Positions 8,221-28,475 are shown, numbered from the stretch's first letter. The stretch: DNA of 64,000 nt from an uncultured Alphaproteobacteria bacterium (GCA_934272785.1 CAKQSE010000002.1:67588-131587); one strand, 5' to 3'. A program made the numbers and translations. Notes: generated by a model not told the origin, from the letters alone.

Positions 8221-8224
8221 TGCA

Positions 8225-9322: not shown

Positions 9323-9324
9323 TC

Positions 9325-11634: not shown

Positions 11635-11653
11635 CTGTCGCCCCAATGTATGG

Positions 11654-13232: not shown

Positions 13233-13310
13233 GGATAAAAACACGACGCCTGCCCGCCCCCGCGCATGATTTTTATTTCTTGGCGTTTATTGAATTTGAT
13301 TGTTATAATA

Positions 13311-13658
13311 ATGGGTATGAATTCATATGAATCTGGGTTGTTTGCCGAATTTTGGGCGCGCATGTATTTGCGCATACATGGATACCGTATTCTGCGGTCG
13401 CGATATGTTACCGGACGCAATACGGGCCGCGCAGAAATTGATATTATTGCCCGGCGCGGCAAAACCATCGTTTTCATAGAGGTTAAACGTCGTCCGACCA
13501 TCGCCGCCGGTTGGGACGCAATTACGCACGCCCAGGCGGCACGCCTGCGTCGCAGTGCAGAAACATTTCTGGCGCGGGAATTTCCGGGATTTGACGCGCG
13601 TTTTGACGTGATAATTGTGTGCGGTCTGCGCATACATCACGCACGTGGCGCAATATAA
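13311..13658 (+). CDS. yraN: YraN-family (UPF0102) endonuclease-like protein
   Basis: GLFAEFWARMYLRIHGYRIL...EIDIIARRGKTIVFIEVKRR. The start was chosen at the internal ATG 13311. Confidence 0.75.
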   Translation: MGMNSYESGLFAEFWARMYLRIHGYRILRSRYVTGRNTGRAEIDIIARRGKTIVFIEVKRRPTIAAGWDAITHAQAARLRRSAETFLAREFPGFDARFDVIIVCGLRIHHARGAI

Positions 13659-13722
13659 ATACTTGCATTTGGGAATTTGGTCCTGTATAATTCGACCAGA
13701 CTTTTTGATAAAAGGAGAAAAC

Positions 13723-13866
13723 ATGAAAAAAGTTATGTTGGCATTGTTTGCCGTTATGACATTGGCTGCCTGCACGGGTTCTTACAAATCGGGTAACTGC
13801 GAATACGATTTCTTGCTGCACAAAGATATTTCTATCTCCAAATTGATTGGCAGCTGCGGCAAATAA
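13723..13866 (+). CDS. Small lipoprotein
   Basis: 47 aa, MKKVMLALFAVMTLAACTGS..., with SD aaaggag 6 nt upstream. Confidence 0.55.
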   Translation: MKKVMLALFAVMTLAACTGSYKSGNCEYDFLLHKDISISKLIGSCGK

Positions 13867-13881
13867 TCAAAATGATAAAAA

Positions 13882-13906
13882 ACGGGGCATCGCCCCGTTT
13901 TTTTTA
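13882..13906 (+). terminator. Intrinsic terminator
   Basis: acggggc-atc-gccccgt followed by T8. Confidence 0.7.
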
Positions 13907-13908
13907 TT

Positions 13909-14239
13909 AGAGAGCAGAGTGTAGAGTGCAGAGAGCAATGTCGCGCGCCATTGGCGCGCTTGTTTTTACCATCGCGGTCTAAGTTCCCCTCTGGCCAGAG
14001 GGGTGGCACGAAGTGCCGGGGTGTCGTTTTTCCAGAGAGCAGAGTGCAGAGAGCAATGTTTTTATTCCGTCACCCCGACGAAGGTCGGGGGCCATTGCCC
14101 CACGGGGACAACCAAAAGACCACCCCGTCCTGGCGGACACCCCGACCCGGGCCCCGCGGAATTGTTAAATTCCGTGGGTGGTTCCAGGAGGGGAACTTAG
14201 TCCGCAACGGACACACCCCCATTGCTCTCTACTCTCTAT
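13909..14239. mobile_element. MITE-like modular repeat element with inverted termini
   Basis: The left end is AGAGAGCAGAGTGTAGAGTGCAGAGAGCAATG (13909-13940). An internal copy lies at 14034-14058 and an inverted copy, CATTGCTCTCTACTCTCTAT, at 14220-14239. Internal palindromic modules are shared with 45829-46394. Confidence 0.6.
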
Positions 14240-14265
14240 TTTCTGGCGCGGCGCGCCAGAAAAAT

Positions 14266-14526
14266 TTACTTTATCACTGCGGTTTTTATCAGGGATACAT
14301 CATCGCGAATCGTGTCCAGTTTTATCTGTAATTGCCCGATGCCTGTTTCCAGTATCGTCGTGCGATTTTCCAGTGTTGTGATACGCGTGTCGGCGCGCTG
14401 GATATCCGCCAGGGACGAATCCTGGCGCGCAACCCAATATACCAGGCCACCAATAAACGCGATTAAAAACCAACTGTCGCGCAGGGTCGCAATCAGGCCA
14501 CCCAAGGCACTTGTTTCCTGTTTCAT
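14266..14526 (-). CDS. Phage-cluster small membrane/coiled-coil protein
   Basis: 86 aa with one TM helix (SWFLIAFIGGLVYWV) followed by heptad-like repeats. It overlaps the upstream gene by 4 nt. Confidence 0.5.
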   Translation of the reverse strand: MKQETSALGGLIATLRDSWFLIAFIGGLVYWVARQDSSLADIQRADTRITTLENRTTILETGIGQLQIKLDTIRDDVSLIKTAVIK

Positions 14527-14717
14527 TTTCGCCCCCGTGATACCATATTTTCAATCATGTGCACCAACGCGCGCTGGGATTCCAGGCCGCGCAATTCGGC
14601 ATCCGACGCATTTGGCCCCAGCACACGTTCAATCGTCATCCGGCGCAGGTGTTGCAGCACCGCCGCACCCGACGCGGTTGAAAATGTGCGGGCATAGTTC
14701 TGGTCAATTTCGTTCAT
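14523..14717 (-). CDS. Small phage-associated protein
   Basis: 64 aa, immediately downstream of the portal gene in the same operon. Confidence 0.45.
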   Translation of the reverse strand: MNEIDQNYARTFSTASGAAVLQHLRRMTIERVLGPNASDAELRGLESQRALVHMIENMVSRGRK

Positions 14718-14732
14718 AATTTTTCCCTATGG

Positions 14733-15956
14733 TTAAATCAGGTTTTCCGCCACCGCCATTTGGGCAATGGGCGCAATGTATTTCAATTCTGCGTCACTGT
14801 TCAGCACAATCGGCGCAATCACACCGCGGCGCGATAAAATCTGTAATCCGCGGTCGGTCAGTGGCCGGATAAATTCGTGCAACAGCCGCCCGTATGTCGC
14901 GCCCAAAATCCGCATCATATCGGAATTGCGCGCCATAATTTCGGTCGCGGTCATTTCTTTTTCAGACAGCAATCCCAACCGATCGGCCAGCAATGCGTGG
15001 CGAATCCGCTCGCGCAGGTCTTTTAATATTATTTGCGACACATCAAAATCCGCACCCGATGACAACGGCGTCAGACCAGATGACCCGACGGCCTTGGGTA
15101 TAATTGCCCCCGGCGTCAGGTTTATGTTATTCAGGTTTATAACGCCATCATCGTCGGCCTGCCATATTCCGGACACTGCAATCGTTGCGTTTTTCAGCAC
15201 CAGTTCAACAACCTTGTTCGCGGTTTTGATGTCGGGCAATGCGCGCAAGACGGGACCGCGGCCGTATTGTTCACCGCTTAGAACACTCCACCGGAAAATG
15301 ATGTATGGATTGGTTTCAAATGTGCCACGCGCAACGATATTGTTTTGAATATTGCCGCCAGCATCCAACCACGCGGTGAATTCTGTGCCAACCAAACTCT
15401 GGACCAGGCGCAGTGGCGTTGCCGGGTCGCGTTTTATCTGGTCCCGGATTTCTGCCGGTGGCGTCCAGGTTGGGTATTTTTCCATAACATCACGCGCGGG
15501 CATTGTTGCCGTGTGAAATACCGCCCCCGGCAAAATCGCAATATCGCGCATTGGCACCGCCGTGAACGAAAACGCCGACGACGCACCGATTGGTGTTTCC
15601 GCCATAAACAGGCACGCCGTTCCCAAAATCACCAAGTCCAAATAGCATTGATGAATTGTGGTATAGAAATTAGAATCGTTCAGATTTGCGCGCAATGCCG
15701 CCGTCGCGGCGTCTGCATCGGGGGACGCATCGCTTTCCGGGACCAGGGATATCCACAGCGATTCCGGTGGCGTCATCAGTGAATATATTGACGCGGCCAG
15801 GTTATCCACCGCATCGGCCGCGGTTGCATCAAACAGTGTTGCCGCATCTGTATCGGTCGTCGGCATTGTGTATCGCATTGCGGCGTCCCAGCGTGCGACC
15901 CACGGCGCACGCGCATCCAATGCACGCCGATACATTTGTTCCAAATCATTTTGCAT
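14733..15956 (-). CDS. Phage portal (head-to-tail connector) protein
   Basis: 407 aa. The N-terminus LEQMYRRALDARAPWVARWDAAMRYTMP is typical of podovirus connector proteins. It sits next to the terminase. Confidence 0.65.
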   Translation of the reverse strand: MQNDLEQMYRRALDARAPWVARWDAAMRYTMPTTDTDAATLFDATAADAVDNLAASIYSLMTPPESLWISLVPESDASPDADAATAALRANLNDSNFYTTIHQCYLDLVILGTACLFMAETPIGASSAFSFTAVPMRDIAILPGAVFHTATMPARDVMEKYPTWTPPAEIRDQIKRDPATPLRLVQSLVGTEFTAWLDAGGNIQNNIVARGTFETNPYIIFRWSVLSGEQYGRGPVLRALPDIKTANKVVELVLKNATIAVSGIWQADDDGVINLNNINLTPGAIIPKAVGSSGLTPLSSGADFDVSQIILKDLRERIRHALLADRLGLLSEKEMTATEIMARNSDMMRILGATYGRLLHEFIRPLTDRGLQILSRRGVIAPIVLNSDAELKYIAPIAQMAVAENLI

Positions 15957-15984
15957 ATTTTCTCCTTTGTTTTGTTGTTATGCA

Positions 15985-16833
15985 TTAAACCTTGAAATTC
16001 GTATTTGCGGAATATATGGGGGCATGGTGTCCCATGGGGCGAATTGGTGTTGGCGCGGCGCATATTGCGCCCGCCACCGCGTCCAGTCCGTCGTCATGCC
16101 CCGCCCCACCAATTGGCGACCATCCCAACATTTCGGCAATAAATGGTGTTTGTGAACACGCGCGGTGCGCATACAATCGCCCAGCGGCCAGTGCCGGTTC
16201 AATTGCGTCTAAAATTCGGTCAACCTTTGGCCGGGTGTTTGTAATCCGCGTGATTGTGATTGGGGTGCCGGCACGTGTTGCCGCGTCGCGCATTATTTCT
16301 GGCAACGCATTTCCGATGCCATTTGTTTCAATCGTTATGCGACGCATATTGTGCACGCGCATAAAATTCAGCACCGCATCACACTGGTGCGCCAATGGGT
16401 GTGCATCATCGTCAGATGCCGTCATATATAAAATATCGTGAATAAACACGCACCGCGTTGTGTCATCACGATACAGCATAACGCACACACTGCCATCGCG
16501 GCCGCGACGCCCGGTTGATGGGTCCCAATACACCGCCGCGCCTGTGATTTTATGTTCGCCAATTTGGGCGGTGCGGCCATCAAACGCGTCATCATATAAA
16601 TGCAATGCCCCGGGATCCAGGCGCATACGTTCGGGCGCGACCGGTTCCAACATCATTTGCGCCGCAAAGTGCCGGGGGCCGACCGCGGACCGCAATTCGG
16701 CAATGCGCGGCGCGGGGAATAATTCGGGCCATGCGGACGCGCCAGCGTCATCAACCACCGGAATTTTCAGTGTTTTATATCCGTGCAAAAAAGGCGTTGA
16801 AAACGTAAATTTTTTGGATACTATATTGGACAT
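15985..16833 (-). CDS. Terminase large subunit, C-terminal nuclease half (split gene)
   Basis: AAVYWDPSTGRRGRDGSVCVML, ITIETNGIG and GHDDGLDAVAGAI match RNase-H-like TerL nuclease motifs. The ATG at 16833 shares the palindrome CATG with the dnaB ATG at 16832. Confidence 0.75.
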   Translation of the reverse strand: MSNIVSKKFTFSTPFLHGYKTLKIPVVDDAGASAWPELFPAPRIAELRSAVGPRHFAAQMMLEPVAPERMRLDPGALHLYDDAFDGRTAQIGEHKITGAAVYWDPSTGRRGRDGSVCVMLYRDDTTRCVFIHDILYMTASDDDAHPLAHQCDAVLNFMRVHNMRRITIETNGIGNALPEIMRDAATRAGTPITITRITNTRPKVDRILDAIEPALAAGRLYAHRACSQTPFIAEMLGWSPIGGAGHDDGLDAVAGAICAAPTPIRPMGHHAPIYSANTNFKV

Positions 16834-18400
16834 GGACTTTACTCCCAAAACTTTACCAACGAACCTAGAGGCCGAACAGGCCGTCCTGGCCGCGGTGTTG
16901 ATGAATAACCGCGCGTTGGAACGCATTTCTGAATTTTTAAAACCGGAACATTTTTCGCATCCCGCACACCAGGAAATTTACAAGTTGGCGGAACGCCAAT
17001 TTGCCGCGGGTATTCCGTTTGATATTATCACCGCGAAAAATTACCTGGACCAACAGGGCGTGTTGGAATCGGTTGGTGGCGTTGATTACCTGACCCAATT
17101 GGCGGGTGCCGGTGCGACGGTTGTAAATGTTGAACAATATGCGCGTATCGTTTATGAAAACGCCCTGCGACGCCAACTGATTGATTTGGGACAATCAATT
17201 ACCGACAACGCATTTGTCGAAGATTTGGACAACCCTGTCACCACCCAGATAGAGGTTGCCGAACAAAAATTATTCAACCTGGCATCGGCGGGCGAAACCC
17301 GGCGCGAGGTTACACCAATCGCAACCGCATTACAGGGCGCATTAAAAGAGGCCGAAATCGCATACAAGGCCGACGGCAAATTGTCGGGTCTGACCACGGG
17401 GCTGAACGCGCTGGATAAATCCATCAGCGGCCTGCACCACAGTGATTTGATTATTATCGCGGGTCGTCCGGCGATGGGTAAAACAACGCTGGCGATGAAC
17501 ATCGCATTTAACGCCGCAAACGCAATTTTATCGGGGCGTGCCAATGATCAATACAAGGGCGCAGTCGTATTTTTCAGTCTGGAAATGTCCCAGGAACAGC
17601 TGGCGACGCGTGTGCTGTCGTCCCAGTCCAAGATTCCGGCATCTGCCATGCGCGAAGGGTCATTTTCTGATGAAGAATTTTTAAAAATGTCCCAATATTC
17701 CCAGGCAATCAGTCGCGTGCCGCTGTATATCGATGACACGCCCGGCATGTCGGTGCCAATGATGCGCACCCGCGCACGCCGTCTGGCGCGCAAATCCGGC
17801 GGGATTGCATTGATTGTAATCGACTATCTGCAACTGATGACGTCACCGGGCGGGCGTAAAAACGACAACCGCGTCCAGGAAATTTCTGAAATCACCCGTG
17901 GACTGAAAATGCTGGCCAAGGAACTGGATGTGCCGGTTATCGCCCTGTCCCAGTTATCGCGCAGTGTTGAAAACCGCGATGACAAACGCCCCCAGTTGGC
18001 GGACTTGCGTGAATCAGGTTCTATTGAACAGGACGCGGACATTGTTATGTTCACATACCGCGAAGAATACTATCTGGACAATCGCGACCCGTCCCAGCGT
18101 ATTTCGGGCAACACCAATGACAAGATTCAGGAATCATACCAGCGTCGTCTGGAACGCGCCCGGGGCAAGGCCGACATCATCATCGGCAAGAACCGTCATG
18201 GCCGTCCGGAAACCGTTCGCACGGCGTTCTTTGGCGATTACAGTTTATTCGACAATCTGGACGAGGCCGACGCCCGCGGCGAAAATGACTTTAACCCAAC
18301 GCCGTCCGCACCCGCAATCACATCTGACCCGGATATGGATAACGCGGCCGCGTTTGAACAGATTGACGCATCGGCAATACCCGACGATATGGAATTGTAA
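16832..18400 (+). CDS. dnaB: Replicative DNA helicase DnaB
   Basis: 522 aa from the internal ATG. It has PTNLEAEQAVLAAVLMNN, Walker A GRPAMGKTT, VIDYLQLM and SQLSRSVENR. The 124 codons upstream in the ORF track are antisense to the TerL-C ORF. Confidence 0.9.
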   Translation: MDFTPKTLPTNLEAEQAVLAAVLMNNRALERISEFLKPEHFSHPAHQEIYKLAERQFAAGIPFDIITAKNYLDQQGVLESVGGVDYLTQLAGAGATVVNVEQYARIVYENALRRQLIDLGQSITDNAFVEDLDNPVTTQIEVAEQKLFNLASAGETRREVTPIATALQGALKEAEIAYKADGKLSGLTTGLNALDKSISGLHHSDLIIIAGRPAMGKTTLAMNIAFNAANAILSGRANDQYKGAVVFFSLEMSQEQLATRVLSSQSKIPASAMREGSFSDEEFLKMSQYSQAISRVPLYIDDTPGMSVPMMRTRARRLARKSGGIALIVIDYLQLMTSPGGRKNDNRVQEISEITRGLKMLAKELDVPVIALSQLSRSVENRDDKRPQLADLRESGSIEQDADIVMFTYREEYYLDNRDPSQRISGNTNDKIQESYQRRLERARGKADIIIGKNRHGRPETVRTAFFGDYSLFDNLDEADARGENDFNPTPSAPAITSDPDMDNAAAFEQIDASAIPDDMEL

Positions 18401-18473
18401 TTATTTTACTTGCGGCGCGTGCAAAAATTGACTAATATTTTGTCAAGAAATACCCAAGTGCAGGAGTTTTGCA

Positions 18474-19481
18474 ATGGCCCAAGAAGAAATCATTTTTCCA
18501 AATAATATTCGTAACATCCGCCTGGCCGCGGGGATGAAAATGACCGAACTGGCGCGCCAGTCGCATTTGTCACTGTCCGCCGTGTCCAAGATTGAAAAGG
18601 GTGTTCGCCGTCTGAACCAGAAACAGTTGCTGAACATCTGTAACATTTTGGGTTGCAAATTATCTGACATATTTATCAAGGAAGACGACGCCGTTGCCGA
18701 CCAGTGGCAGAGCGAGATTAAACGTCGTCTGACCGATAACGAAGACAGCGGCCTGAAAATATTCGGTTCGGGTCTGCGCAAGATTCGCCAGCAAACCGGC
18801 AAAACGATTGCCCAGGCGGCACACGACGCCGGCATGACACTGTCCGTCTATCACAAGATAGAGGTTGGCCAACGTGAAATCTATCAAAACGAAATCGAAC
18901 CACTGGCCCGGTCATTCGCGATGAGTGCACAAAGCTTGTTTGATAAAATCGCCACACTGTATAAATCGGGCGAATTGAACAAACAAATCAGCAAGGTCAA
19001 AGAGCGCGTAAAATCCGTTCTGATTCCAGACAATCCCGCATCGGGCATTGATATGCATGGGGGCCTGTATGGTGCCAAGTTGTATGACAGTGCGCGTAAA
19101 AAACTGGTCCCGGTATTTGGCACACCTGCCGGCAAATCAATTGCGTTCAAGAAATCTGATGAAACGATGATTGTTGCCCCAATGACACTGGAAGGACGCA
19201 GTGGCATTTACGCCGTCGTGCCGAATTCTAAACGTCTGGGCGGATTTATCCCGGAACATTCGTATGTATTTGCCGACGCGACCCAGGCACCCGCCGTTGG
19301 TGATTTGGCCGTGTGTATCGACACTGATTTCGGCACATTGGCATCTGATACCGTTGCCACCGCCCAAATCGTCAGTGTGCGCCAGGATTCCCGTGGCAAG
19401 GTTTATGGTCAGATTTCATCGCCTGATGAAAAAATCATCGGCCAGACCATGCACAAGGTTATTATGATTGTTATGGAATAA
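18474..19481 (+). CDS. Transcriptional regulator: two XRE-type HTH domains plus an S24/LexA-CI-like C-terminal domain
   Basis: 335 aa. HTH 1 is about residues 10-67 (IRNIRLAAGMKMTELA...) and HTH 2 about 93-157 (LRKIRQQTGKTIAQAA...). The C-terminus has VPVFGTPAGKSIAF and a beta-rich region like the CI/LexA cleavage domain. Confidence 0.6.
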   Translation: MAQEEIIFPNNIRNIRLAAGMKMTELARQSHLSLSAVSKIEKGVRRLNQKQLLNICNILGCKLSDIFIKEDDAVADQWQSEIKRRLTDNEDSGLKIFGSGLRKIRQQTGKTIAQAAHDAGMTLSVYHKIEVGQREIYQNEIEPLARSFAMSAQSLFDKIATLYKSGELNKQISKVKERVKSVLIPDNPASGIDMHGGLYGAKLYDSARKKLVPVFGTPAGKSIAFKKSDETMIVAPMTLEGRSGIYAVVPNSKRLGGFIPEHSYVFADATQAPAVGDLAVCIDTDFGTLASDTVATAQIVSVRQDSRGKVYGQISSPDEKIIGQTMHKVIMIVME

Positions 19482-19511
19482 CATCACCCACAGAAAACGG
19501 AGAGAGAACCC

Positions 19512-20192
19512 ATGAAAGCCAGAGCCAGCGCAATCGCACAAAAATTGTTAAACCTGTATCGCCAGGAACACGTCATCATTGGCGGCTGGGCGGCGGTCAA
19601 TCCCGTCTTTGTGGCCGAGGCCGATGACGAAGTCATACGCGAGTTGCGCGCCCTGCCGACCGGGAAGATGTTGATTCAGCATATTGAAAACCTGCGCAGT
19701 GGAAAAACACAAATGGACACCATTGATCGCGAATTGTTACCGTATGGCGGTCAAATGGCCGAAACAATTGTGACAATCCCACTGACCGCGGACGAGTGGC
19801 GCGAACTGGAATCCGGTATCGCCGCGTTTACACCCGACGAAAGTGGCCTGGCCCAGATCCAGCAATTGGATGTTGTCCGCAAATTTGGCGACGAGTGGCC
19901 GGTTGCAATTCATTCCGCCCTGGCACAAAAACCAGAACTGTTATCAAAATGGACCGTCATTACCAAAACGTATCGTGCATACTTCTTGTGGCACGTTGCA
20001 ACAGATATGCTGAACGAGCCGCTGTCGGAACGTGCACGTGCGCAATTACAGGCCGATATGCCCGAATACGAAACGTATCTGCCGATGTTTGGTGACGCGG
20101 GTGACGAATTGTTGCGCAAACTGCGCACGTTTATCAGCACACGCGATCCAATTGATACCGACAATGCGCCCGACGCGCCGACATCAATTTAG
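19512..20192 (+). CDS. Hypothetical protein (third gene of the dnaB cassette)
   Basis: 226 aa with no recognisable motif. Its stop overlaps the stop of TerL-N on the opposite strand. Confidence 0.5.
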   Translation: MKARASAIAQKLLNLYRQEHVIIGGWAAVNPVFVAEADDEVIRELRALPTGKMLIQHIENLRSGKTQMDTIDRELLPYGGQMAETIVTIPLTADEWRELESGIAAFTPDESGLAQIQQLDVVRKFGDEWPVAIHSALAQKPELLSKWTVITKTYRAYFLWHVATDMLNEPLSERARAQLQADMPEYETYLPMFGDAGDELLRKLRTFISTRDPIDTDNAPDAPTSI

Positions 20193-20818
20193 TCGTCATC
20201 GCTGGTGCGATAAATCGTATCGACCGTATGTGGCGTGCCGATATAAATCATTGTGCCACCTGGGGACAAGATAAAATCCAATTCCCGTAATCGTTCACGT
20301 AACTTTTCACGCTTGTCGGGGGTGTTGCTGGTATTTGGAACCTCGACATCATCACAGATTATTAAATCTGCACGTGCGCCTGTTATGTTACCGGCAACAC
20401 CGGCACAGATGACCGATGGCTCGCGTATGCCAATTGGCCGATTTACTGTTATTCGATCACTGGCCCACGTTCGCCGTCCGGTTGGAATCATATCGCTGCA
20501 CCGTGGATGATTTTCCAATATGTTACGAATATGCCCAACCATACGTGACGACAGTGTGGTTTCTGCGGATAAAATCAGAATACGCGATTCTGGGCGCATG
20601 CACAGCACGCACGCTGCGAAAATCCCCACAACGGTTGATTTACCCGAATGCCGAAACGCCATCAACAATCCCCGATTTGGTGACGTTGTCCAAGTGTCCA
20701 CCAAGAATTCCATTATTCGCCGATGATGTGCGGGCGTTTTCATCCCCAACAGTGCGTTCCACTGGTCCATAAAATCACAGAACGCCATAGTCATCGCGGT
20801 TTTCATTTGGCGCGACAT
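20189..20818 (-). CDS. Terminase large subunit, N-terminal ATPase half (split gene)
   Basis: 209 aa with Walker A AFRHSGKST, Walker B LIICDDVE and coupling motif IGTPH. It ends 16 residues after GTPH. Confidence 0.8.
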   Translation of the reverse strand: MSRQMKTAMTMAFCDFMDQWNALLGMKTPAHHRRIMEFLVDTWTTSPNRGLLMAFRHSGKSTVVGIFAACVLCMRPESRILILSAETTLSSRMVGHIRNILENHPRCSDMIPTGRRTWASDRITVNRPIGIREPSVICAGVAGNITGARADLIICDDVEVPNTSNTPDKREKLRERLRELDFILSPGGTMIYIGTPHTVDTIYRTSDDD

Positions 20819-21329
20819 CGGTAATCATCCCATAATCATTGACCAGTTTTGGCAATGCCCCATCCAGCACCGACAGCAGATTTTGATACAGTCCCAAAAC
20901 CGCCCCGCCCGACAATTTGTCTTGAATCACCGCCAGATTGTAATTCAAGAAATTCATCACATTATCGTGGGTATTTTTCCACTGGGCCAGGTCAATATTC
21001 ACCCCATCCAGGTCACGAAACGCCGCCAGTAAAAAATTAAAGTCCGCGTTCAGTGATTCTGGGTCAATTTTCATCGTCGGCTGGTAATCAATCACACGGT
21101 TCAGCGCGATGCGCCGAAATATGTCAATCGTTGCGTCCGCCGTGGGTGGCACTTGAAATACAACGTTGCCGCCGGTGAAATCATCGTTTGGCACGACCGA
21201 ATATATTCCCGCGTCCGGCTCCGCGACCGCGTCATCAATTGCGACATGCACGTCGGCATTTTGAAAGAACGGAAATACAAATTGGTATTCGGTCGTAACG
21301 CCGTCGGCGACATATGATATTTTATACAT
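20775..21329 (-). CDS. Tail-fibre N-terminal (tail-attachment adaptor) domain protein
   Basis: 184 aa. YVADGVTTEYQFVFPFFQNADVHVAID matches the T7-type fibre N-terminal pattern. There is no distal receptor-binding part. Confidence 0.55.
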   Translation of the reverse strand: MYKISYVADGVTTEYQFVFPFFQNADVHVAIDDAVAEPDAGIYSVVPNDDFTGGNVVFQVPPTADATIDIFRRIALNRVIDYQPTMKIDPESLNADFNFLLAAFRDLDGVNIDLAQWKNTHDNVMNFLNYNLAVIQDKLSGGAVLGLYQNLLSVLDGALPKLVNDYGMITDVAPNENRDDYGVL

Positions 21330-21340
21330 ATCCGCCCCCT

Positions 21341-21688
21341 TTAAGCGACCAAATCATCAAATCGGTCCATCAATTTTTTCAACAGATTTGGTTTTGTCGT
21401 CTTGACCTGGCGCAGTTTTTCCAACGACGCGCGACGCTTTTCATCATATGGCGCGGCCGTTTCAGATTGCAGGCGTCGCAACACGGCATCTTCGGTCATG
21501 CCACGATTTGACATCCCCGATGCGCCGTATTTTGCACGCTGGGCCGCCAGGGCCTTTTTCACCAGGTTTGTTTTTGTCTTTTCATCGGCCGCCATATCCG
21601 CCAGTATTTTCTTGCGGGCGGTGCTGGCCTCGCTCTTGCTTTTTTTATAGTCCAAAACTTCTTGGACATCAGAAACCAATTGTCCCAT
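21341..21688 (-). CDS. Basic phage-cluster protein of unknown role
   Basis: 115 aa, Lys/Ala-rich and predicted helical, between tubular protein B and the fibre adaptor. Confidence 0.45.
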   Translation of the reverse strand: MGQLVSDVQEVLDYKKSKSEASTARKKILADMAADEKTKTNLVKKALAAQRAKYGASGMSNRGMTEDAVLRRLQSETAAPYDEKRRASLEKLRQVKTTKPNLLKKLMDRFDDLVA

Positions 21689-21711
21689 TTTTCACTCCCT
21701 TGGTTATTTTG

Positions 21712-23427
21712 TTAAACGGTGTAATATCCATACATTGTGACCGACAATACGGTGATTTTTTCTGCGTCACTTGACGAAATTCGCCACGGGGACGCGGTGC
21801 AATCCTGCATCCATCCCAACGCGCCAACCGACACATCACCCGTAAATCCCGAATGCGTCGCGGCATATATTTCATCGGGCAACACGCATCGCATATCATT
21901 TATCAGGATTGATTTTGTGTCACAAACACGCGCGGCGATTTTACGAATGCGCGCACGTGCGGCGTTATGCCCACTGCCCCGCAGGGGAACGCCCGCGGCC
22001 GCGATACTGAAATTATATGCCGGCGCATCACACAGTGCGTCGTGCGAAAAATATTCCAAGAAATATTTATCATCGCGCGCAACGACAACGAACGTTTTGC
22101 CCGCCGATACCGCAACTGATTTAAATTCGCCGTTTGTTTTATACTGGACCCACGCCGAAATTCCCAACGCCGTATTCTGGTTCAGCACCGCCATATCGCC
22201 CGACGCCATAACGACAAACAATCGCCGTTCGGCACTGTTATACGCAATGTCAACCGGCGTCTGCATCAGGTGTTTCGCATACGCGCACAGGTCGGTTGCA
22301 TTATAATTTTCACCCAATTCATCCAGTGACAGTTCCCGAATATCACGCATAGACGCGGCGACAAATACGGTTGCGCCCTCTATCTTTTGCGGGGGCATAT
22401 ATCGTGACGATGCGCTGCCGACCGATGTGTGCTGCTTTATATCAACCGATGACGGGGTCAGTGGTTTATTCGCAATTGCCCATTCGCCCACCGTCGTCAG
22501 GATTTGCAGATTATCCGCACTGACAACCGTGCAAATCTGTTGCCGCTGGGCCGACAGCAATGTGATAAATATCGCCTGGTCGTCCAAACCGGTGCCAACG
22601 TCAAAGTTATTGTGCCGCCCGACCTGGGACATCCATACGCCCGCCGGATAGTCACGCGCACCACCGAACACCAATCGGTCCTGGTGAAATGTGATGCTGA
22701 CCGGCCAACCACGACGCGTGCTGAATGCGGCCTGACGCCAATCGGTAACGGCGGCGGCGGGTAACGTAAATGTTCCGTTTGTATGCGCCGTGGCAACGGT
22801 TGGTCCCGTGACAGATGTGATTGTCCACTGGCGGTCCAGGACCATAAACCGACCGCCCACATCATCAGACGTCCAAAAATCGCGATTGGTCGTAAATGTG
22901 GCATAGTTATTGCCCGCGCTGTTTGCCGTGACGGTTATTTCAATGCCATCGGTATCGTCAAATCGCACAAATGGAATATTGACCGATAAATCAGAATCAT
23001 TGCGCGAAAAATCAAACAGCGACAGTGTAAATCCATCTGGCGTGCTCTGGAACACGCGCGGCTGAAAATCCGGATGAACAAAAATCATCGTGCCGAAACG
23101 CTGGGCGTATTGCAGTGATTTTATCGCGTCTGCCGGCCACGGCGCGGCGATGTCCTGGATTTGTTCGTCGTCCGAAAATACCAATATATGTCCATCGGTA
23201 ATGGCCAACATGTATTCCGCGTCCGCACCCACCGAAAACGGCACCAGGCGCGCCGCATTTGGCAATACGGCACCCGCACACAATCCTGCACGACGCGTTA
23301 TTCCGCCACCCGACATTACGTCCATATTTAACAATTGCGACAATCCATTTAAATTATCGTGCGTATAAAATTCGCGGGAAATTTCCCCATCTGCAAAAGA
23401 ATTCTGGGTATTTATAAAATTTGCCAT
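21712..23427 (-). CDS. Tail tubular protein B-like (nozzle)
   Basis: 571 aa. The N-terminus ANFINTQNSFADGEISREF...GGGITRRAGL and its position after the tubular protein A-like gene support the call. Confidence 0.5.
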   Translation of the reverse strand: MANFINTQNSFADGEISREFYTHDNLNGLSQLLNMDVMSGGGITRRAGLCAGAVLPNAARLVPFSVGADAEYMLAITDGHILVFSDDEQIQDIAAPWPADAIKSLQYAQRFGTMIFVHPDFQPRVFQSTPDGFTLSLFDFSRNDSDLSVNIPFVRFDDTDGIEITVTANSAGNNYATFTTNRDFWTSDDVGGRFMVLDRQWTITSVTGPTVATAHTNGTFTLPAAAVTDWRQAAFSTRRGWPVSITFHQDRLVFGGARDYPAGVWMSQVGRHNNFDVGTGLDDQAIFITLLSAQRQQICTVVSADNLQILTTVGEWAIANKPLTPSSVDIKQHTSVGSASSRYMPPQKIEGATVFVAASMRDIRELSLDELGENYNATDLCAYAKHLMQTPVDIAYNSAERRLFVVMASGDMAVLNQNTALGISAWVQYKTNGEFKSVAVSAGKTFVVVARDDKYFLEYFSHDALCDAPAYNFSIAAAGVPLRGSGHNAARARIRKIAARVCDTKSILINDMRCVLPDEIYAATHSGFTGDVSVGALGWMQDCTASPWRISSSDAEKITVLSVTMYGYYTV

Positions 23428-23445
23428 TATATCCCCCGTAATTCG

Positions 23446-23964
23446 TTAAAATCGTGAATTTATCAGTGAAAAGTTTTCGATATTTGATGGCGATGATGTT
23501 GTGCCATCAATGAATTTTGCCGTCTGTAATTCTGATTCATACAGCGCGGCCAGCATTCTGAATATCGTTTGATCCCCGGTCAGCGGGACGCAAAATTCCA
23601 TCGCCAGTTTTGTCGCCGCCACCGACACAAAGTATCCCGGAAATGCGTCCGGCGCAACACGCGCCAGGCCGATTACCGAAATCGTATCGGTCGGTGCAAT
23701 GATTTTATTGCCAACAATATTGCCGACGGATTTCACCACGCGCAGGCATTCGGCCGGCAACACAAAATCGCCATCGGTGTTCTTGGTCAAATCAAATCGA
23801 CGACATGCAAATCGCCACGGGTGCAGCGCAATCAATGCGTCCATCACCGGGTCAAATAATGTTCGGGCCAGTTGCGCCGCCGGCGTGTCATCTAACAACG
23901 ATTGTATCGGTTTTTCGCCCAGTTTCAGCAACGCCATTGAACATAAATCTATCTTGGTCAACAT
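23446..23964 (-). CDS. Tail tubular protein A-like (adaptor)
   Basis: 172 aa from the internal ATG. MLTKIDLCSMALLKLGEKPIQSLLDDTPAAQLARTLFDPVMDALIALHPWRFA fits the gp11-like pattern. Confidence 0.55.
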   Translation of the reverse strand: MLTKIDLCSMALLKLGEKPIQSLLDDTPAAQLARTLFDPVMDALIALHPWRFACRRFDLTKNTDGDFVLPAECLRVVKSVGNIVGNKIIAPTDTISVIGLARVAPDAFPGYFVSVAATKLAMEFCVPLTGDQTIFRMLAALYESELQTAKFIDGTTSSPSNIENFSLINSRF

Positions 23965-24048
23965 TTTCGTTTTCCCCCATTGGTTGATACAAAAAACCGG
24001 GGGCGGCACGCGCCACCCCCAAACAAAAATCAGTTATGATTTTATTTT

Positions 24049-24279
24049 TTATCCCAACGCCGCCGTTGTAACGGTCCCAGATGTAACAGTTATCGCCTTG
24101 ATTGACGTTTTATCTGACGCATTGATGATAACAATGTCGCCCGTGTTCATCAGTGTGTTCACGGCGTTAAAATAACCACTGGCGGTGATTGTTGCCAATG
24201 TAACATTTTCTGCATAGTGCCACAGTGTGAACCCGTTTGCATATGCAATCACAGACAAATTTTTATTCTGAAATGCCAT
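24049..24279 (-). CDS. Small phage-cluster protein
   Basis: 76 aa, directly downstream of the capsid gene. Confidence 0.45.
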   Translation of the reverse strand: MAFQNKNLSVIAYANGFTLWHYAENVTLATITASGYFNAVNTLMNTGDIVIINASDKTSIKAITVTSGTVTTAALG

Positions 24280-24301
24280 CTATTTTTCCTTTGGTTATTT
24301 T

Positions 24302-25135
24302 TTATTGTGCGTCGTTGTCTTTGCATTTGATACGAACGATACCGTCGCCATCAATCAGGACCGCGCCCTGGGACATGCTGTTGCTGATAAAGTGCGCGGC
24401 ACGTTCGCCATGCCATGAAATATCCGTTTTAACTTCCTGGCCGCATGCGTGACCAATGCTGGCCGCGTGATAGATAAAGCAATCACGTTTTGTTGTGTCT
24501 GACAACGGCAACGCGTTATACAGCACCCACGTAATGCCCAACCATTTCTTGGATGCGCCCCCAGAAATCAACGGCAAATCATTATTGCCAACGTAATCCG
24601 CCGAAACGAATTCTGTGATTTTCAGCAATTCGTTCCACTGGTGCACACCAACAACGGCAAAGCGGCGACCATCGTCTGGGATATCCTTGCTGTTCAGTGT
24701 TTCAACCGCTGACAAAATTAAATCCTTGCTCAGGCCCGCCGAATAATCACCAACCGACGCGGTTGCGCCCGACATGGCGTTCACAATCAGTTCATCGGTT
24801 TTGCGACCCAACGCATATGCGCCGGCACTGGCCACGACGCGACGTTCATCAATATTGGTCTTTAATTCGTCCAATGCGTCGACCCAATCGCCGGCATAGT
24901 AATCCTGTAACACGCATTCAACCGGTTCATGATTCAGGTTCATAACCGGCACAATGCCATGACGCGATTTTGTTGCGGCGGTGCCACGTCCAACCTTTTG
25001 AAATGTTGTTGATGCACCGACGACGCCTGATTTGCTGCGCACGGTTCCGCGCAGCTTTGTGCCCATTTGCTGGTATGCCAAATGAACATCTGCCTCGAAT
25101 TGTTTTACAAATACTTGGTCTATGGAAACAGACAT
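24302..25135 (-). CDS. Major capsid protein
   Basis: 277 aa from the internal ATG, with SD aaggga. FVKQFEADVHLAYQQMGTKLRGTVR...GRKTDELIVNAM is typical of HK97-fold podovirus coat proteins. It follows the scaffold gene. Confidence 0.65.
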   Translation of the reverse strand: MSVSIDQVFVKQFEADVHLAYQQMGTKLRGTVRSKSGVVGASTTFQKVGRGTAATKSRHGIVPVMNLNHEPVECVLQDYYAGDWVDALDELKTNIDERRVVASAGAYALGRKTDELIVNAMSGATASVGDYSAGLSKDLILSAVETLNSKDIPDDGRRFAVVGVHQWNELLKITEFVSADYVGNNDLPLISGGASKKWLGITWVLYNALPLSDTTKRDCFIYHAASIGHACGQEVKTDISWHGERAAHFISNSMSQGAVLIDGDGIVRIKCKDNDAQ

Positions 25136-25324
25136 ATTTTTTCCCTTGGTTAAATTATGTAAATTGTGACGCAATAAATTGCGCCAATAAAATTTCATCA
25201 CACGGTTATGCGCATATGCACGCCGCGACGAAACAAACACATCGGGTTCCAAACACAGATTCAGAATTATCCGTAAAAAAAATTTCAGTCGCACCGATAT
25301 GATACGACTGATACTTTCTTCAAG

Positions 25325-25348
25325 TAAAAACCCCACCGAACGGTGGGG
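25325..25348 (-). terminator. Intrinsic terminator after the Lys/Ala-rich gene
   Basis: On the minus strand: ccccac-cgttcg-gtgggg followed by ttttt. Confidence 0.6.
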
Positions 25349-25354
25349 AAAATA

Positions 25355-25726
25355 TTATTTTTTCTTGGCTGGTGCTTTTTTCGCAACTGGCTTTTTGGCC
25401 GGTGCTTTTTTCGCAACAACTTTTTTCGCTGCTGGTTTTTTAACCGCAACTTTTTTTGCAACAGGCTTTTTCGCAGCAACTTTTTTCGCCGCTGGTTTTG
25501 CTGCTACTTTCTTGGCAACTGGCTTTTTGGCCGGTGCTTTTTTCGCAACAACTTTCTTGGCTGCTGGTTTCGCTGCTGGCTTTTTAACCGCAACTTTTTT
25601 TGCCGCTGGTTTCGCAGCAACTTTCTTTGCAGCAGGTTTTGCCGCTACTTTTTTCACTGCTGGTTTCGCAGCCGGTTTTTTAGCAGCAACTTTCTTCGCC
25701 GCTGGTTTCAAGAATGTGAATGCCAT
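25355..25726 (-). CDS. Lys/Ala/Pro-rich histone-H1-like basic repeat protein
   Basis: 123 aa made almost entirely of (K)KPAAK/KKVAAK repeats. Strong SD aaggaga 7 nt upstream. It is on the same strand as its neighbours. The plus-strand ORFs here are Phe/Ala-rich mirror artefacts. Confidence 0.6.
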
Positions 25727-25831
25727 TCTTCTCTCCTTTCTATTTTTTTGGATAGAACAAATTTTTTTGTTCTTACTTTATATTTTATACGAAACATAAA
25801 ACATAGTAAAGAAGAAAGTGCATTTTTTTTG

Positions 25832-26488
25832 TTATGAATATAATTTTTTAAATCCATTTTCAATTTTTCGAACGTATTCACTGTCGTGATCACGCCAATA
25901 TTTTGGATCACGCATCATGCGTCGCAAATCATTATCAGATAAATTTACATCATCACCATCGGCGGTTTGAACGTGTGGTTCCATTGATTGCATCATCCTG
26001 TATATGCCTTGGATTCCCTGGGGTGTGGCGCATAACGCATCAAATGCATCGCGTGGTAAAAATTGCGTTCCAAATGCATTTATTTGTTTTATTGCATCGT
26101 TCATTTTTTCATCACTGCCAAAGAAATTTTTTAATTCAGAAATTGCCGCAGCCTGGGATTGTGTTGCAAACAAATCAGATATTACTGGTGATAAAAATTC
26201 TTGGGCGATGTTATAAATTTGCGAAACCTGTGATGACGTCAATCCAATTTCAAAAAATTTTGCGCGCAAATTTTCATCATCAAACAAATCATTTTTTGGA
26301 TAATTATCCGGTGCGTCTGGCACGCCAATCGCGCGTCTGAAACGATTACGCGTATCATCGTCGGCATCATCAGACGGCACCGATATCATCGTTCCGATTT
26401 TCTTTTCCAATGCCGCATATGATTTTATCAATGCATCTGTGTTTAATGTTCCGTCTTGGTTTTTAAATTTTTCAGGAATCTTTTCCAT
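25832..26488 (-). CDS. Capsid scaffolding protein
   Basis: 218 aa. The N-terminus IPEKFKNQDGTLNTDALIKSYAALEKKIG is typical of podovirus scaffolding proteins. It is acidic and helical. Confidence 0.6.
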   Translation of the reverse strand: MEKIPEKFKNQDGTLNTDALIKSYAALEKKIGTMISVPSDDADDDTRNRFRRAIGVPDAPDNYPKNDLFDDENLRAKFFEIGLTSSQVSQIYNIAQEFLSPVISDLFATQSQAAAISELKNFFGSDEKMNDAIKQINAFGTQFLPRDAFDALCATPQGIQGIYRMMQSMEPHVQTADGDDVNLSDNDLRRMMRDPKYWRDHDSEYVRKIENGFKKLYS

Positions 26489-26700
26489 TTTTTATTTCCT
26501 TTGTTTTGATTGTTTGATTTGCGAATAAAATAAATTCCACACAATGTGAACAGTGCCTGGCATAAAACAAAAATATCACTGTCACCGACCAAATACGCCG
26601 CCACCGCCGACAGCGCGCCAACGACCGACATAACGTGCGTGCGCCGGTCGGCCAACCATCCGCCACGAATAATTTTCTGGATACGCATTTTTATCACCAT
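26443..26700 (-). CDS. Holin-like membrane protein
   Basis: 85 aa with two hydrophobic segments and a highly basic C-terminal tail. Its start overlaps the endolysin stop (TAATG). Confidence 0.45.
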   Translation of the reverse strand: MVIKMRIQKIIRGGWLADRRTHVMSVVGALSAVAAYLVGDSDIFVLCQALFTLCGIYFIRKSNNQNKGNKKWKRFLKNLKTKTEH

Positions 26701-27110
26701 TATAAATAGAACAACATTCCATCAACGTCAGCGATATATCCGCGCGATGTTGACCAGGCGGGCATTTCATCAGCACGATGAAAACGCGTTGCACCAAACG
26801 ACACATCTGGTAAATTGCCGTGCAACATTCGCCGCACCACACGCAGGCACATTTGAAATCCGCGCACATCCGGCGCAACATTTAATAATTCGTGACGCGC
26901 ATCATTTTCGTTCAGCGATAAAAACACATCACAATCTGTTACAACAACGTCCGGCGTGACACCACGATAACGCGCCAGATTTGAAATCATTGATGTAAAT
27001 GCCTCGACCAGCAATAACGATGTTGCACCCGTTTCGGCATAAACCACGCGCGCAATTTTATACGCGACGCACTGTGACACATCTGGGTTTGTTATCAGTT
27101 CAAGTTGCAT
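26700..27110 (-). CDS. Endolysin, SleB-type cell wall hydrolase family
   Basis: 136 aa. ARVVYAETGATS...SFGATRFHRADEMPAW resembles the Hydrolase_2/SleB domain. It is the first gene of the cluster. Confidence 0.6.
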   Translation of the reverse strand: MQLELITNPDVSQCVAYKIARVVYAETGATSLLLVEAFTSMISNLARYRGVTPDVVVTDCDVFLSLNENDARHELLNVAPDVRGFQMCLRVVRRMLHGNLPDVSFGATRFHRADEMPAWSTSRGYIADVDGMLFYL

Positions 27111-27150
27111 GTGCGGTCCTCTCCTCTTTCCACTTTGTTTGTTTTGGCAA

Positions 27151-27178
27151 TAAAAAAGACCGCGTGATTTACGCGGTC
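27151..27178 (-). terminator. Intrinsic terminator 2 in the leader of the lysis/structural operon
   Basis: On the minus strand: GACCGCG-taaatca-CGCGGTC followed by tttttt. Confidence 0.65.
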
Positions 27179-27185
27179 AGAAAAT

Positions 27186-27209
27186 AAAAAAATCCGCACA
27201 ATACGCGGA
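27186..27209 (-). terminator. Intrinsic terminator 1 in the leader of the lysis/structural operon
   Basis: On the minus strand: TCCGC-gtattgt-GCGGA followed by ttttttt. Confidence 0.6.
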
Positions 27210-27235
27210 CAGAATCTTTACTGTTGATATTGTAT

Positions 27236-27264
27236 ATAGTATCACAAATTGCATAAAAAGTCAA
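27236..27264 (-). promoter_or_regulatory. Near-consensus sigma70-type promoter facing the phage-like operon
   Basis: On the minus strand: TTGACT, 17 nt, TACTAT. A -10-like TACAAT lies just downstream in the initial transcribed region. Confidence 0.55.
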
Positions 27265-27307: not shown

Positions 27308-27994
27308 TTATTTCATACTGATTTCGTCACCATATGCCAGCAAATATTGCGTTCCACGTCGCAAAACCAATGCACCTGATTCATTTATTCCAATCAATTC
27401 CACATTTTCACCGCGATAACGCACCACCTTGTTCAATGCGGCGGCCATTTCCATCCAACGCGCGCGCACATCGGCAAAATCCGCACGCATCCATTTATCC
27501 AAATTGCGCATCAGACGATTTAACAATTCTGTGCGTTCCACATCGGCATAGTTTTCCAGTTTTGTTGTCTTGTATTCGGGCACGGTTGGATTTGATTTTA
27601 TGTTTATCCCAATTCCAACAATCACAAACGCACCAGCGTATTCAATCAAGACACCGCACACCTTGGCCCCATCAATCAGGATATCATTTGGCCACTTTAT
27701 CGTCGGATGGATGCCAAACGAAATCAACGTTTCGGCGATTGCAACCGCAACGACATACGACAGGCGCGGATCGCGATTTTCAGATGCGAAAATAAAACTG
27801 GCATACAAATTACCATGATGCGAAACCCATGTCCGACGATACCGCCCGCGCCCGGCTGATTGTGCCAGTGCGACGACAACCGTGCGGCTTCGTGCCGCGC
27901 CACGCGCAATTAAATCCAGCGCATATGTTTGTGTGCTGGGGATTTTATCAAAAGAAATCAGTTTATATCCCGCCAATTTTATACACCCCATCAA
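27308..27994 (-). CDS. birA: Biotin--[acetyl-CoA-carboxylase] ligase
   Basis: 228 aa with QSAGRGRYRRTW and KWPNDILIDGAKVCGVL. There is no N-terminal HTH. Confidence 0.85.
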   Translation of the reverse strand: MMGCIKLAGYKLISFDKIPSTQTYALDLIARGAARSRTVVVALAQSAGRGRYRRTWVSHHGNLYASFIFASENRDPRLSYVVAVAIAETLISFGIHPTIKWPNDILIDGAKVCGVLIEYAGAFVIVGIGINIKSNPTVPEYKTTKLENYADVERTELLNRLMRNLDKWMRADFADVRARWMEMAAALNKVVRYRGENVELIGINESGALVLRRGTQYLLAYGDEISMK

Positions 27995-28382: not shown

Positions 28383-28475
28383 ACCCCCAGGATAAACGAT
28401 GACACACCACATGTCCAGGGAAAAAGACCGCGCATGCGCGCGGTCTGGGCTGTGGTGGTGTTCACAATATGGCGA

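Follow-up and report, generated by a model that had tools for sequence, protein, structure and literature searches.

What are the particle and lysis genes of a podovirus doing between two housekeeping genes of an uncultured gut bacterium? The question is raised by a 64-kb stretch of DNA from an uncultured Alphaproteobacteria bacterium (GCA_934272785.1, CAKQSE010000002.1:67588-131587), which was analysed over its whole length and is called the window. Profile searches of its open reading frames (ORFs) recognised a T7/BPP-1-like podovirus module of head, tail, packaging and lysis genes at 14266-27264, called the cluster. A first-pass annotation, made from the sequence alone, had read this cluster as a possible domesticated particle locus of the kind known as gene transfer agents (GTAs). 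Synteny, intactness, the ratio of nonsynonymous to synonymous substitution rates (dN/dS) and co-divergence with dnaB and birA bear out its domestication, and there is strong support for regarding the locus as a domesticated podovirus that the Rs-D84 gut Alphaproteobacteria have inherited vertically. Known here from its genes alone, the locus probably also works as a GTA-like device, a reading that is given a probability of about 0.6.

The particle genes all lie on the minus strand and run from 27110 to 14266, with three plus-strand genes inside them at 16832-20192. The flanking genes are the ones annotated before, yraN (13266-13658) and, on the side of the lysin gene, birA (27308-27994). The earlier list of genes is also matched by the profiles. 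What does not stand is the statement that all genes share one strand, since dnaB, a regulator of the XRE family and a gene for a 226-amino-acid (aa) protein, named unk226, are found on the plus strand. The loci and genomes used for comparison are labelled with L-numbers.

Conservation and selection in the host lineage

When GTDB was scanned with one genome for each species, the gene of tail tubular protein B turned up in 25 genomes, all of them from uncultured gut Alphaproteobacteria of humans, goats, deer and termites, which are labelled Candidatus Enterousia, 'Rickettsiales' or 'Alphaproteobacteria'. Enterousia belongs to the order Rs-D84 and has genomes of 0.75-1.0 Mb, without the tricarboxylic acid cycle and respiration (PMC12306168). 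The whole cluster is present in 24 species with the same gene order, including the opposite-strand block of dnaB, regulator and unk226 between the two halves of the large terminase (TerL), and tubular protein B is 56-94% identical among them. In most of the species genomes whose locus reaches that side, birA adjoins the lysin gene (directly upstream in 16, inverted in one). Furthermore, the same arrangement was found in 56 additional IMG/VR contigs and in the environmental metagenome-assembled genome L111, whose neighbourhood is collinear with the window: bamA, a virB8-like gene, yraN, the cluster, birA, a tRNA methyltransferase gene and an outer-membrane protein gene. Portal proteins that are 95-100% identical are found on more than 100 metagenome assemblies, with contigs of up to 1.24 Mb. 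An exact-protein look-up of the window portal returned none on record.

Concerning the integrity of the genes, internal stop codons are restricted to spurious N-terminal extensions of the mechanically called ORFs. Starts were corrected by means of orthologue stop codons and alignment (capsid to 25135, where orthologues show stop codons upstream of Met67; tubular protein A to 23964; C-terminal half of TerL to 16833), and after this correction none remains in any structural gene of any species, which agrees with the earlier remark that every ORF looks intact. Frameshifts in sister strains, the sign of decay that the first-pass annotation had proposed to look for, were found in none of the sister species; one genome (L112) carries a deletion.

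Selection was estimated as pairwise Nei-Gojobori dN/dS, using pairs with dS from 0.05 to 1. The values of the cluster range from 0.03 to 0.2, the same as those of the host neighbours birA (0.05) and dnaB (0.06). The lowest value belongs to the N-terminal half of TerL (0.03), followed by the capsid (0.048), the portal and the 86-aa protein (0.05 each), tubular protein B (0.09), the first 63 codons of the holin-like gene (0.13), the C-terminal half of TerL (0.16) and the lysin (0.2). Moreover, in Mantel tests each gene of the cluster shows protein distances that correlate with the ones of dnaB and of birA (r = 0.6-0.9, p = 0.001), and portal and capsid evolve as slowly as DnaB. Conservation, synteny and dN/dS, the checks that had been suggested for this locus, all favour domestication.

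It should be noted that IMG/VR (L028-L083) and TPA records list this chromosomal locus, with the host dnaB included, as viral contigs. Many of the IMG/VR contigs begin inside the capsid gene and end after the gene of the Bbp19-like protein, which resembles trimming at hallmark genes by software. Such listing inflates the counts of gut 'phages' and can mislead host assignment.

A large terminase encoded in two genes

The large terminase of the cluster is encoded by two genes that are 3.4 kb apart. The N-terminal half, TerL_N (20189-20818, minus strand, 209 aa, PF03237), is an ATPase in which Walker A, Walker B and motif III are all invariant. In the window it terminates with ...GTPHTVDTIYRTSDDD, and its C-terminus lies at the same point in all species, with the form ...GTPH-x-DTIY followed by a short acidic tail. 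The C-terminal half, TerL_C (15985-16833, minus strand, 282 aa, PF17289 and PF22530), holds the rest of the ATPase domain and the RNase H-like nuclease. It starts with a short variable tail, continues with the conserved motif FSTPFLxGYxxLKIP and carries the invariant motifs WDPS, ETNG and DDGLD. When both halves are joined in silico, they give a single high-scoring segment pair, over residues 4-490, with an intact T7-like TerL. Compared with the intact TerL of Acetobacteraceae, the enzyme is interrupted within a linker of 5-8 residues, without any loss of sequence.

The identical break point is present in two deeper low-GC lineages, L025 and L089, in which the contents of the gap are different. 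In L089 the halves are adjacent, with a spacer of 215 nt that holds a perfect sigma70 promoter and one hairpin-terminator unit. The gap of L025 contains promoter/hairpin-terminator units, a tRNA, a 560-aa FtsZ and the portal gene. This shared break point indicates that the split of TerL is ancestral to the clade. Both halves are under selection in three different arrangements. The best explanation for this is an enzyme made of two separate chains, and we infer that TerL_N and TerL_C act together as such a terminase. A two-gene terminase with one break point also offers a natural experiment on how ATPase and nuclease cooperate in a viral packaging motor.

Two other explanations of the interruption were considered and discarded. 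As for an intron, no Rfam intron was found in L089, L025 or the window, and the intervening genes of the window lie on the opposite strand. An intein would find no room, because one half ends and the other starts within a few residues of the linker.

The gaps of the two low-GC lineages show other features. Perfect sigma70 promoters followed by CU-rich (CCUCC-like) hairpin-terminator units were seen at 13700-15300 of L025 and at 8790-9040 of L089. These units are repeated several times in L025 beside the tRNA and have no Rfam match; they may represent an undescribed family of small RNAs. A wider metagenome scan for loci of the L025 type recovered just four short contigs. The FtsZ of L025 (15357-17039) is full-length, with Tubulin and FtsZ_C domains, and its position between TerL_N and portal parallels that of dnaB in the window.

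Host genes between the terminase halves

The genes of dnaB, the XRE regulator and unk226 occupy precisely the gap that separates the ATPase half of TerL from its nuclease half, and the junctions are exact to the nucleotide. At one of them the stop codon of unk226 overlaps that of TerL_N (TTAG at 20189-20192), and at the other the ATG of dnaB overlaps that of TerL_C (CATG at 16831-16834). The first-pass annotation had stated that the cluster lacks replication genes. Literally this does not hold, given that dnaB (16832-18400, plus strand) lies inside it, but the encoded replicative helicase is of the cellular type and not of the phage type: it reaches 613 bits with the cellular alphaproteobacterial equivalog NF006606, whose cut-off is 540, whereas the Phage_DnaB model TIGR03600 stays below its cut-off.

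The XRE-family regulator (18474-19481, plus strand, 335 aa) has two helix-turn-helix domains (PF01381 twice) and a beta-rich C-terminal domain. It matches phrog_3, phrog_4 and other repressor families, and is 52-97% identical across species. Its single-sequence fold was unusable (pLDDT 37). The third gene, unk226 (19512-20192, plus strand), encodes an all-alpha protein of a lineage-specific family with 371 members, all from this lineage. No sequence match was found for it in Pfam, NCBIfam, PHROG or PDB, and its AlphaFold2 model (pLDDT 82) gave no PDB match below E = 0.9 in Foldseek.

Relatives with an intact terminase

Related clusters in which TerL is not split were found in IMG/VR. One set belongs to Acetobacteraceae, among them Belnapia, Roseomonas, Roseicella and Teichococcus, with TerL 71-94% identical among these genera, and other sets come from hosts with a GC content of 0.34 to 0.72. 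These clusters (L108, which is Roseomonas sp. OT10, CP087719; L109 and L110 from Teichococcus; L084-L107 and L117-L157) measure 12-20 kb and consist of structural and lysis genes only. Their TerL is in one piece of about 480 aa, a single frame without stops. Directly upstream of it, in the position of a small terminase, there is a gene of about 100 aa that belongs to phrog_31793; it is present in at least 52 of the loci with intact TerL and in none of about 85 loci with split TerL.

In two complete Acetobacteraceae genomes the cluster takes about 12.5 kb and is followed by ordinary metabolic genes. The gene order there is portal, scaffold, capsid, tubular A, tubular B, a 146-aa protein, a 780-aa fibre, a small gene, TerL and lysin. 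Between the window and these clusters, TerL_N is about 50% and the capsid 55-60% identical. Gene families are shared by the window with the Acetobacteraceae and other IMG/VR clusters, the order is similar, and the 10 kb downstream of the relatives lack integrase and replication genes. Unlike the window, these relatives have an intact TerL, the phrog_31793 gene and a full-length fibre of about 780 aa, and their chromosomal site varies by genus. This comparison of gene contents shows that the Rs-D84 clade altered its packaging machinery twice, by splitting TerL and by losing the gene upstream of it. Cultured Acetobacteraceae with an intact TerL could serve as an experimental model.

Mobility functions and free phages

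In line with the first-pass annotation, profile searches covering all 64 kb of the window recognised no integrase, recombinase, DNA polymerase, RNA polymerase or small terminase, and a repeat search found no att-like direct repeats flanking the cluster. The single-subunit RNA polymerase, a hallmark of Autographiviridae, is likewise absent from the cluster and from the rest of the window, and apart from a fibre-tip gene no phage gene was seen elsewhere in the window. None of the hallmarks of an intact temperate prophage was found (integrase, att sites, replication module, small terminase and one-piece TerL).

Near-identical copies in free phages had been named as the observation that would speak for a recent prophage. 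Megablast of the locus against 50,697 phage records returned no near-identical DNA, and the best phage portal matches are 27-48% identical, the 48% one lying on a 5-kb fragment. For the related locus L138, megablast against phages and plasmids gave no match, and tblastn of its TerL (of the group with GC 0.57) against plasmids gave distant matches only.

Taken together, synteny, intactness, purifying selection, co-divergence and the lack of mobility genes exclude that the locus is a mobile element or a prophage that arrived recently or is decaying, and they show vertical inheritance over a long time under selection. As judged by its gene content, the locus has lost integration, replication and the gene in the small-terminase position, and it is still predicted to encode a complete T7/BPP-1-like particle, with procapsid, portal, short tail, fibre, packaging motor and lysis genes.

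Promoter, terminators and expression

Upstream of the lysin gene, a consensus scan detected a sigma70-type promoter (27236-27264, minus strand) with the -35 box TTGACT, a 17-nt spacer with an extended-10 TG and the -10 box TACTAT. This promoter (TTGACT, 17 nt, TAnnAT) is kept in the 17 of 17 species that could be aligned at the birA-lysin spacer, and also in L025 and L089. It is followed by a conserved leader of about 20 nt, present in the 17-species alignment, and by two tandem intrinsic terminators (27192-27210 and 27158-27178, minus strand) located before the start codon of the lysin. The stems of these terminators vary in sequence among species, while their position and U-runs are kept, and the design is the same in L025 and L089. 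The leader of the window folds at -24.7 kcal/mol (z = -4.4). Another intrinsic terminator (23997-24022, minus strand; -21.7 kcal/mol, z = -3.2) is located between the head and tail genes; a hairpin with a U-run occurs at this junction in 18 of 24 species, with unrelated stem sequences.

The late operon of lambda, PR'-tR'-S-R-Rz-head genes, is controlled by the antiterminator Q. The cluster has the layout of such Q-type late operons, with a strong constitutive-type promoter, a short terminated leader, and lysis genes followed by morphogenesis genes. The likeness is architectural only: there are two tandem terminators in the cluster, and no Q-like protein or qut-like site was recognised in it. 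Terminator read-through by antitermination has reportedly been seen in a domesticated phage of Caulobacter with GafYZ. In the Bartonella agent BaGTA, expression is gated by terminators and the processive antiterminator BrrG (bioRxiv 10.1101/2024.11.20.624540). Given the lambda-like layout and the read-through shown for BaGTA, we infer, by analogy, that antitermination controls the expression of the cluster.

The genes beyond the plus-strand block (TerL_C, portal, Bbp19-like protein and 86-aa protein) have no room for a promoter of their own. The simplest route to their expression is antisense read-through. Judging by this arrangement, they are probably transcribed antisense through unk226, the XRE regulator and dnaB. 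If this is true, particle production would be coupled to interference with the helicase and the regulator.

Beside the promoter region, a 149-aa ORF (p149, 27963-28412) overlaps the start of birA and is conserved together with it in nearly all species. It has a sub-threshold match to Trans_reg_C, an OmpR-type winged helix (E = 0.016). On the basis of this match, p149 could regulate birA or the neighbouring cluster.

Proposed function and competing explanations

Three of the features by which GTAs are recognised are seen in this locus: resident phage-derived genes that are inherited vertically, purifying selection, and a lack of functions for replication, integration and excision. Furthermore, Enterousia genomes measure 0.75-1.0 Mb (PMC12306168), and in genomes of this size one would not expect about 13 kb of DNA to be retained if it had no use. 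The device could work as follows. Transcription would start at the constitutive-type sigma70 promoter and would halt at the two tandem terminators unless an antitermination factor or condition acts. Read-through would then express the lysis and head genes, pass the internal terminator towards the tail genes and TerL_N, and probably run on, antisense to unk226, the XRE regulator and dnaB, as far as TerL_C, portal, the Bbp19-like protein and the 86-aa protein. TerL_N, as the ATPase, and TerL_C, as lid plus nuclease, would assemble non-covalently into a working terminase, and this terminase, lacking its small partner, would package host DNA without sequence preference. A producing subpopulation would lyse and release the particles, and recipients would be bound through the fibre adaptor and a fibre tip with an Mtd_N domain.

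Several observations weigh against a working GTA of this kind. Packaging start and the entry of DNA into the recipient are not accounted for, as no small terminase was recognised in the window and no ejection proteins of the T7 gp14-16 type in the cluster; after tubular protein B there is just a 115-aa protein, with no large ORF and no matching family for these internal virion proteins. The literature yielded no described precedent for a two-polypeptide TerL. Regarding expression, no antiterminator was recognised: there is no family match in the window, unk226 has no fold match and p149 has only the weak Trans_reg_C match. In addition, no promoter was found for the TerL_C-portal half, and a test for an embedded element found that synonymous variation is not reduced in the 5' part of dnaB. 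Losses in the lineage point the same way. The fibre adaptor is missing in about half of the species (L005, L024, L036, L039, L042 and others), where the gene of the 115-aa protein abuts TerL_N. L112 (GCA_016927735.1, 10672-11344) has suffered a 6-kb deletion from residues 1-147 of TerL_N through to the capsid gene, so that the loss of cluster segments can happen, although it keeps the same neighbourhood together with portal, TerL_C, scaffold and lysin. Finally, one classical criterion for GTAs is that the capacity of the head is below the size of the encoding locus, and a capsid of T=7, if such it is, could hold the whole 13-kb locus.

An alternative view is that the locus is domesticated for something other than gene transfer, such as the killing of competitors, the production of phage decoys, the delivery of a cargo or of the basic protein, or programmed lysis, with a vestigial or repurposed terminase. 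Purifying selection shows use and not purpose, the fibre adaptor is dispensable in many species, a polycationic protein is conserved within the head module, and neither a small terminase nor ejection proteins were found. This explanation is considered unlikely, since the portal, both TerL halves and the ATPase and nuclease motifs are among the slowest-evolving parts, which implies selection on DNA packaging, and since the operon opens with the lysis genes, which is also the order of phage late operons. A different idea is that the cluster is a grounded prophage that still serves itself, its infectious particles carrying the 13-kb locus and spreading it by homologous recombination into the birA-yraN neighbourhood. 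The T7-type scaffold and the 277-aa capsid would be compatible with a T=7 head, whose capacity is well above 13 kb, the region is classed as viral by IMG/VR and virome catalogues, and the relatives with intact TerL occupy different chromosomal sites in other Alphaproteobacteria. Against it stand the co-divergence of the cluster with dnaB and birA, the slow evolution of portal and capsid, the essential host genes inside the cluster, the lack of a packaging-recognition gene, and the contig boundaries in IMG/VR that look like software trimming. It is therefore held to be quite improbable.

As for a decaying and functionless cryptic prophage whose TerL was destroyed by the insertion of host genes, the interrupted TerL, the 6-kb deletion in one genome and the lack of an integrase would fit. 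It is already contradicted by genes that are intact in 24 species with proteins differing by up to about 45%, by dN/dS values of 0.03-0.2, by a break point and two halves that are kept in three lineages with different inserts, and by the strong reduction of the host genomes (PMC12306168), and is considered very improbable. The full set of structural and lysis genes, accompanied by an XRE-type regulator and a DnaB, could raise the suspicion of a temperate phage that is still active, or of a satellite dependent on a helper, sitting between yraN and birA as an integrated element. However, the same locus is present in dozens of species, there is neither integrase nor att repeats, the DnaB is the cellular equivalog, and no similar free phage was found (the best portal identity being 48%, on the 5-kb fragment), so that this explanation is extremely improbable.

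With a working GTA-like device as the preferred reading, a broader scheme can be outlined, which is tentative and rather doubtful. The whole order would possess a podovirus-derived GTA with a two-subunit terminase, in whose operon essential genes (dnaB, and ftsZ in the sister lineage) are locked, and antisense transcription through dnaB and the XRE gene would couple particle production to the shut-off of replication and repressor, acting as a commitment switch. If so, the embedded essential genes would also guard the locus against deletion in a shrinking genome.

Comparison with known systems

RcGTA-type agents (Rhodogtaviriformidae) and the window locus have in common a chromosomal, phage-derived cluster of head, tail and packaging genes, vertical inheritance, purifying selection, the lack of integrase and replication genes, accessory genes such as the fibre tip elsewhere in the genome, and a host-type promoter. 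On the other hand, RcGTA is siphovirus-like with an HK97-type T=3 head, whereas the window locus is T7/BPP-1-like with tubular tail proteins, and there is no sequence relationship. RcGTA also keeps a small terminase and a single-gene TerL, in contrast with the split TerL of the window locus, in which lysis genes lead the operon.

The likeness to BaGTA of Bartonella (bgtA-K plus the ROR locus) is one of layout. BaGTA is a domesticated cluster conserved across a host-associated alphaproteobacterial lineage, a lysis cassette opens its capsid operon, and essential host genes are interspersed in its region (PMC5496983). The differences are that packaging by BaGTA is coupled to a phage-derived run-off replication origin, nothing of this kind being seen in the window locus, and that no split TerL has been reported for it. 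If the leader with promoter and double terminator is antiterminated, it would be the third independent case after the Caulobacter and Bartonella agents.

In the gut commensal Faecalibacterium prausnitzii, FpGTA is a GTA-like and likely podovirus-like element with more than one locus, whose packaging was shown by nanopore sequencing; the paper presents it as the first GTA of podovirus type and also as the first from the human gut (PMC12946183). Its host is a Firmicute, so the window locus, likened to it by description and not by sequence, would be a second and independent case in a different phylum. The literature yielded no description of the Rs-D84 locus, the Acetobacteraceae clusters or the split terminase, and FpGTA was the only podovirus-like GTA candidate found there. 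The locus is set apart by its two-gene terminase, with essential genes embedded in the gap, and by a leader whose double terminator is conserved. If the particles move DNA, this would be the first T7-like GTA in Alphaproteobacteria, and it would give uncultured gut bacteria with genomes of about 0.9 Mb a route of recombination where they otherwise face irreversible gene loss.

Among free phages, homologues of portal, scaffold, capsid, tubular proteins A and B, fibre N-terminal domain and TerL are found in T7-like/HTVC019P-type podoviruses (pelagiphages, Methylophilales phage MEP301 and Alcaligenes phage Piluca), at 27-35% identity for the portal and about 27% for TerL. These phages differ from the window locus in their genome size of 34-40 kb and in possessing polymerases for RNA and DNA, internal virion proteins, a small terminase and a TerL in one piece.

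Particle and lysis genes of the cluster

The genes described in this section are all on the minus strand and are given in the order of transcription. The first one encodes an endolysin-like protein of 136 aa (26700-27110, phrog_938), which shares 30% identity with the Hydrolase_2 lysin encoded in the Acetobacteraceae cluster and whose ORF is intact in 17 species. Adjoining it, a small holin-like protein (26443-26700) has a conserved part of about 63-68 aa and a weak match to phrog_4092; this match and its position next to the lysin suggest that it is a holin. The head module then starts with a T7-type scaffolding protein (25832-26488; PF05396, E = 6.7e-11), followed by a 123-aa basic protein with Ala/Lys/Pro repeats (25355-25726), histone H1-like and matched by PF07382 (HC2). 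A homologous repeat protein is encoded between scaffold and capsid in every species checked, L025 included. The major capsid protein has 277 aa (24302-25135; PF19821, E = 7.9e-71), and after it comes a head-module protein of 76 aa (24049-24279; phrog_18004) that is kept in all lineages, including L089.

The tail genes begin with tubular protein A, the adaptor (23446-23964; phrog_394, E = 1.2e-31, with a weak match to PF17212), and tubular protein B, the nozzle, of 571 aa (21712-23427; phrog_376, E = 1.8e-79). The 115-aa basic coiled protein (21341-21688) lies 3' of tubular protein B and has homologues in the same place in L025, L089 and the Acetobacteraceae. The tail-fibre adaptor (20775-21329, 184 aa, phrog_1640) is of the T7 gp17 N-terminal type; its orthologue in L025 matches PF03906, and the window protein aligns to the N-terminus of a 787-aa Acetobacteraceae fibre. 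Beyond TerL_C are found the T7-type portal or head-to-tail connector, of 407 aa (14733-15956; PF12236, E = 1.3e-83), the small Bbp19-like protein (14523-14717; PF25181, E = 3.9e-12) and the 86-aa protein p86 (14266-14526), which is conserved in 16 species and is the last cluster gene in this genome. The T7-like structural module is complete for portal, scaffold, tubular proteins A and B, and the fibre N-terminal domain, the latter through the L025 orthologue.

At the junctions of cluster genes, extra ORFs were observed in termite-gut and other lineages (L021, L022, L034 and L043), several of them with lipoprotein-type signal sequences.

Dispersed fibre-tip gene and neighbouring DNA

The suggestion of a separate fibre-tip-like gene beside bamA was correct. 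A candidate fibre-tip or receptor-binding protein with an Mtd_N domain (6288-6800, plus strand; PF18454, E = 1.2e-15) is encoded next to bamA (3888-6158), and is separated from the cluster by type IV secretion-like genes and a low-GC island of glycosyltransferase genes. In L015, L023 and L035 a homologue directly follows the 86-aa gene, and in L003, L009 and L032 a homologue lies near it, which indicates that the fibre-tip gene is a true but relocated member of the cluster. Upstream of it there is a second promoter of the cluster type (6195-6223, plus strand), followed by a hairpin with a U8 run (6234-6263). A degenerate 29-nt consensus, written from both promoters, matches only these two sites of the window, with 0 expected by chance, while the hairpin is weak (-9.2 kcal/mol, z = -1.5). 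Hence, the idea of a dispersed accessory gene, as put forward in the first-pass annotation, finds backing in both its position in other genomes and its promoter here. A diversity-generating retroelement acting on the Mtd_N gene was also considered and discarded, as neither a template/variable repeat nor a reverse transcriptase was found in the window.

The low-GC island (6778-10431) has a GC content of 35-41%, against about 49% elsewhere, and carries three glycosyltransferase-type ORFs, two of which share an 89-nt repeat at their 5' ends. The collinear regions of L111 and L112 lack this island. The type IV secretion-like genes at 10846-12990, a VirB8-like ORF and two neighbours, are syntenic in L111 and L112, as is a VirB11/T2SSE-like ATPase gene at 33982-34941. 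Between yraN and the cluster there is a 600-nt non-coding gap (13659-14265) with a 27-nt direct repeat at 13915 and 14033 and a 42-nt GC-rich element, an inverted copy of which lies 32 kb away (45959-46000). At the position of this gap, L111 and L112 carry a small DUF4223 gene.

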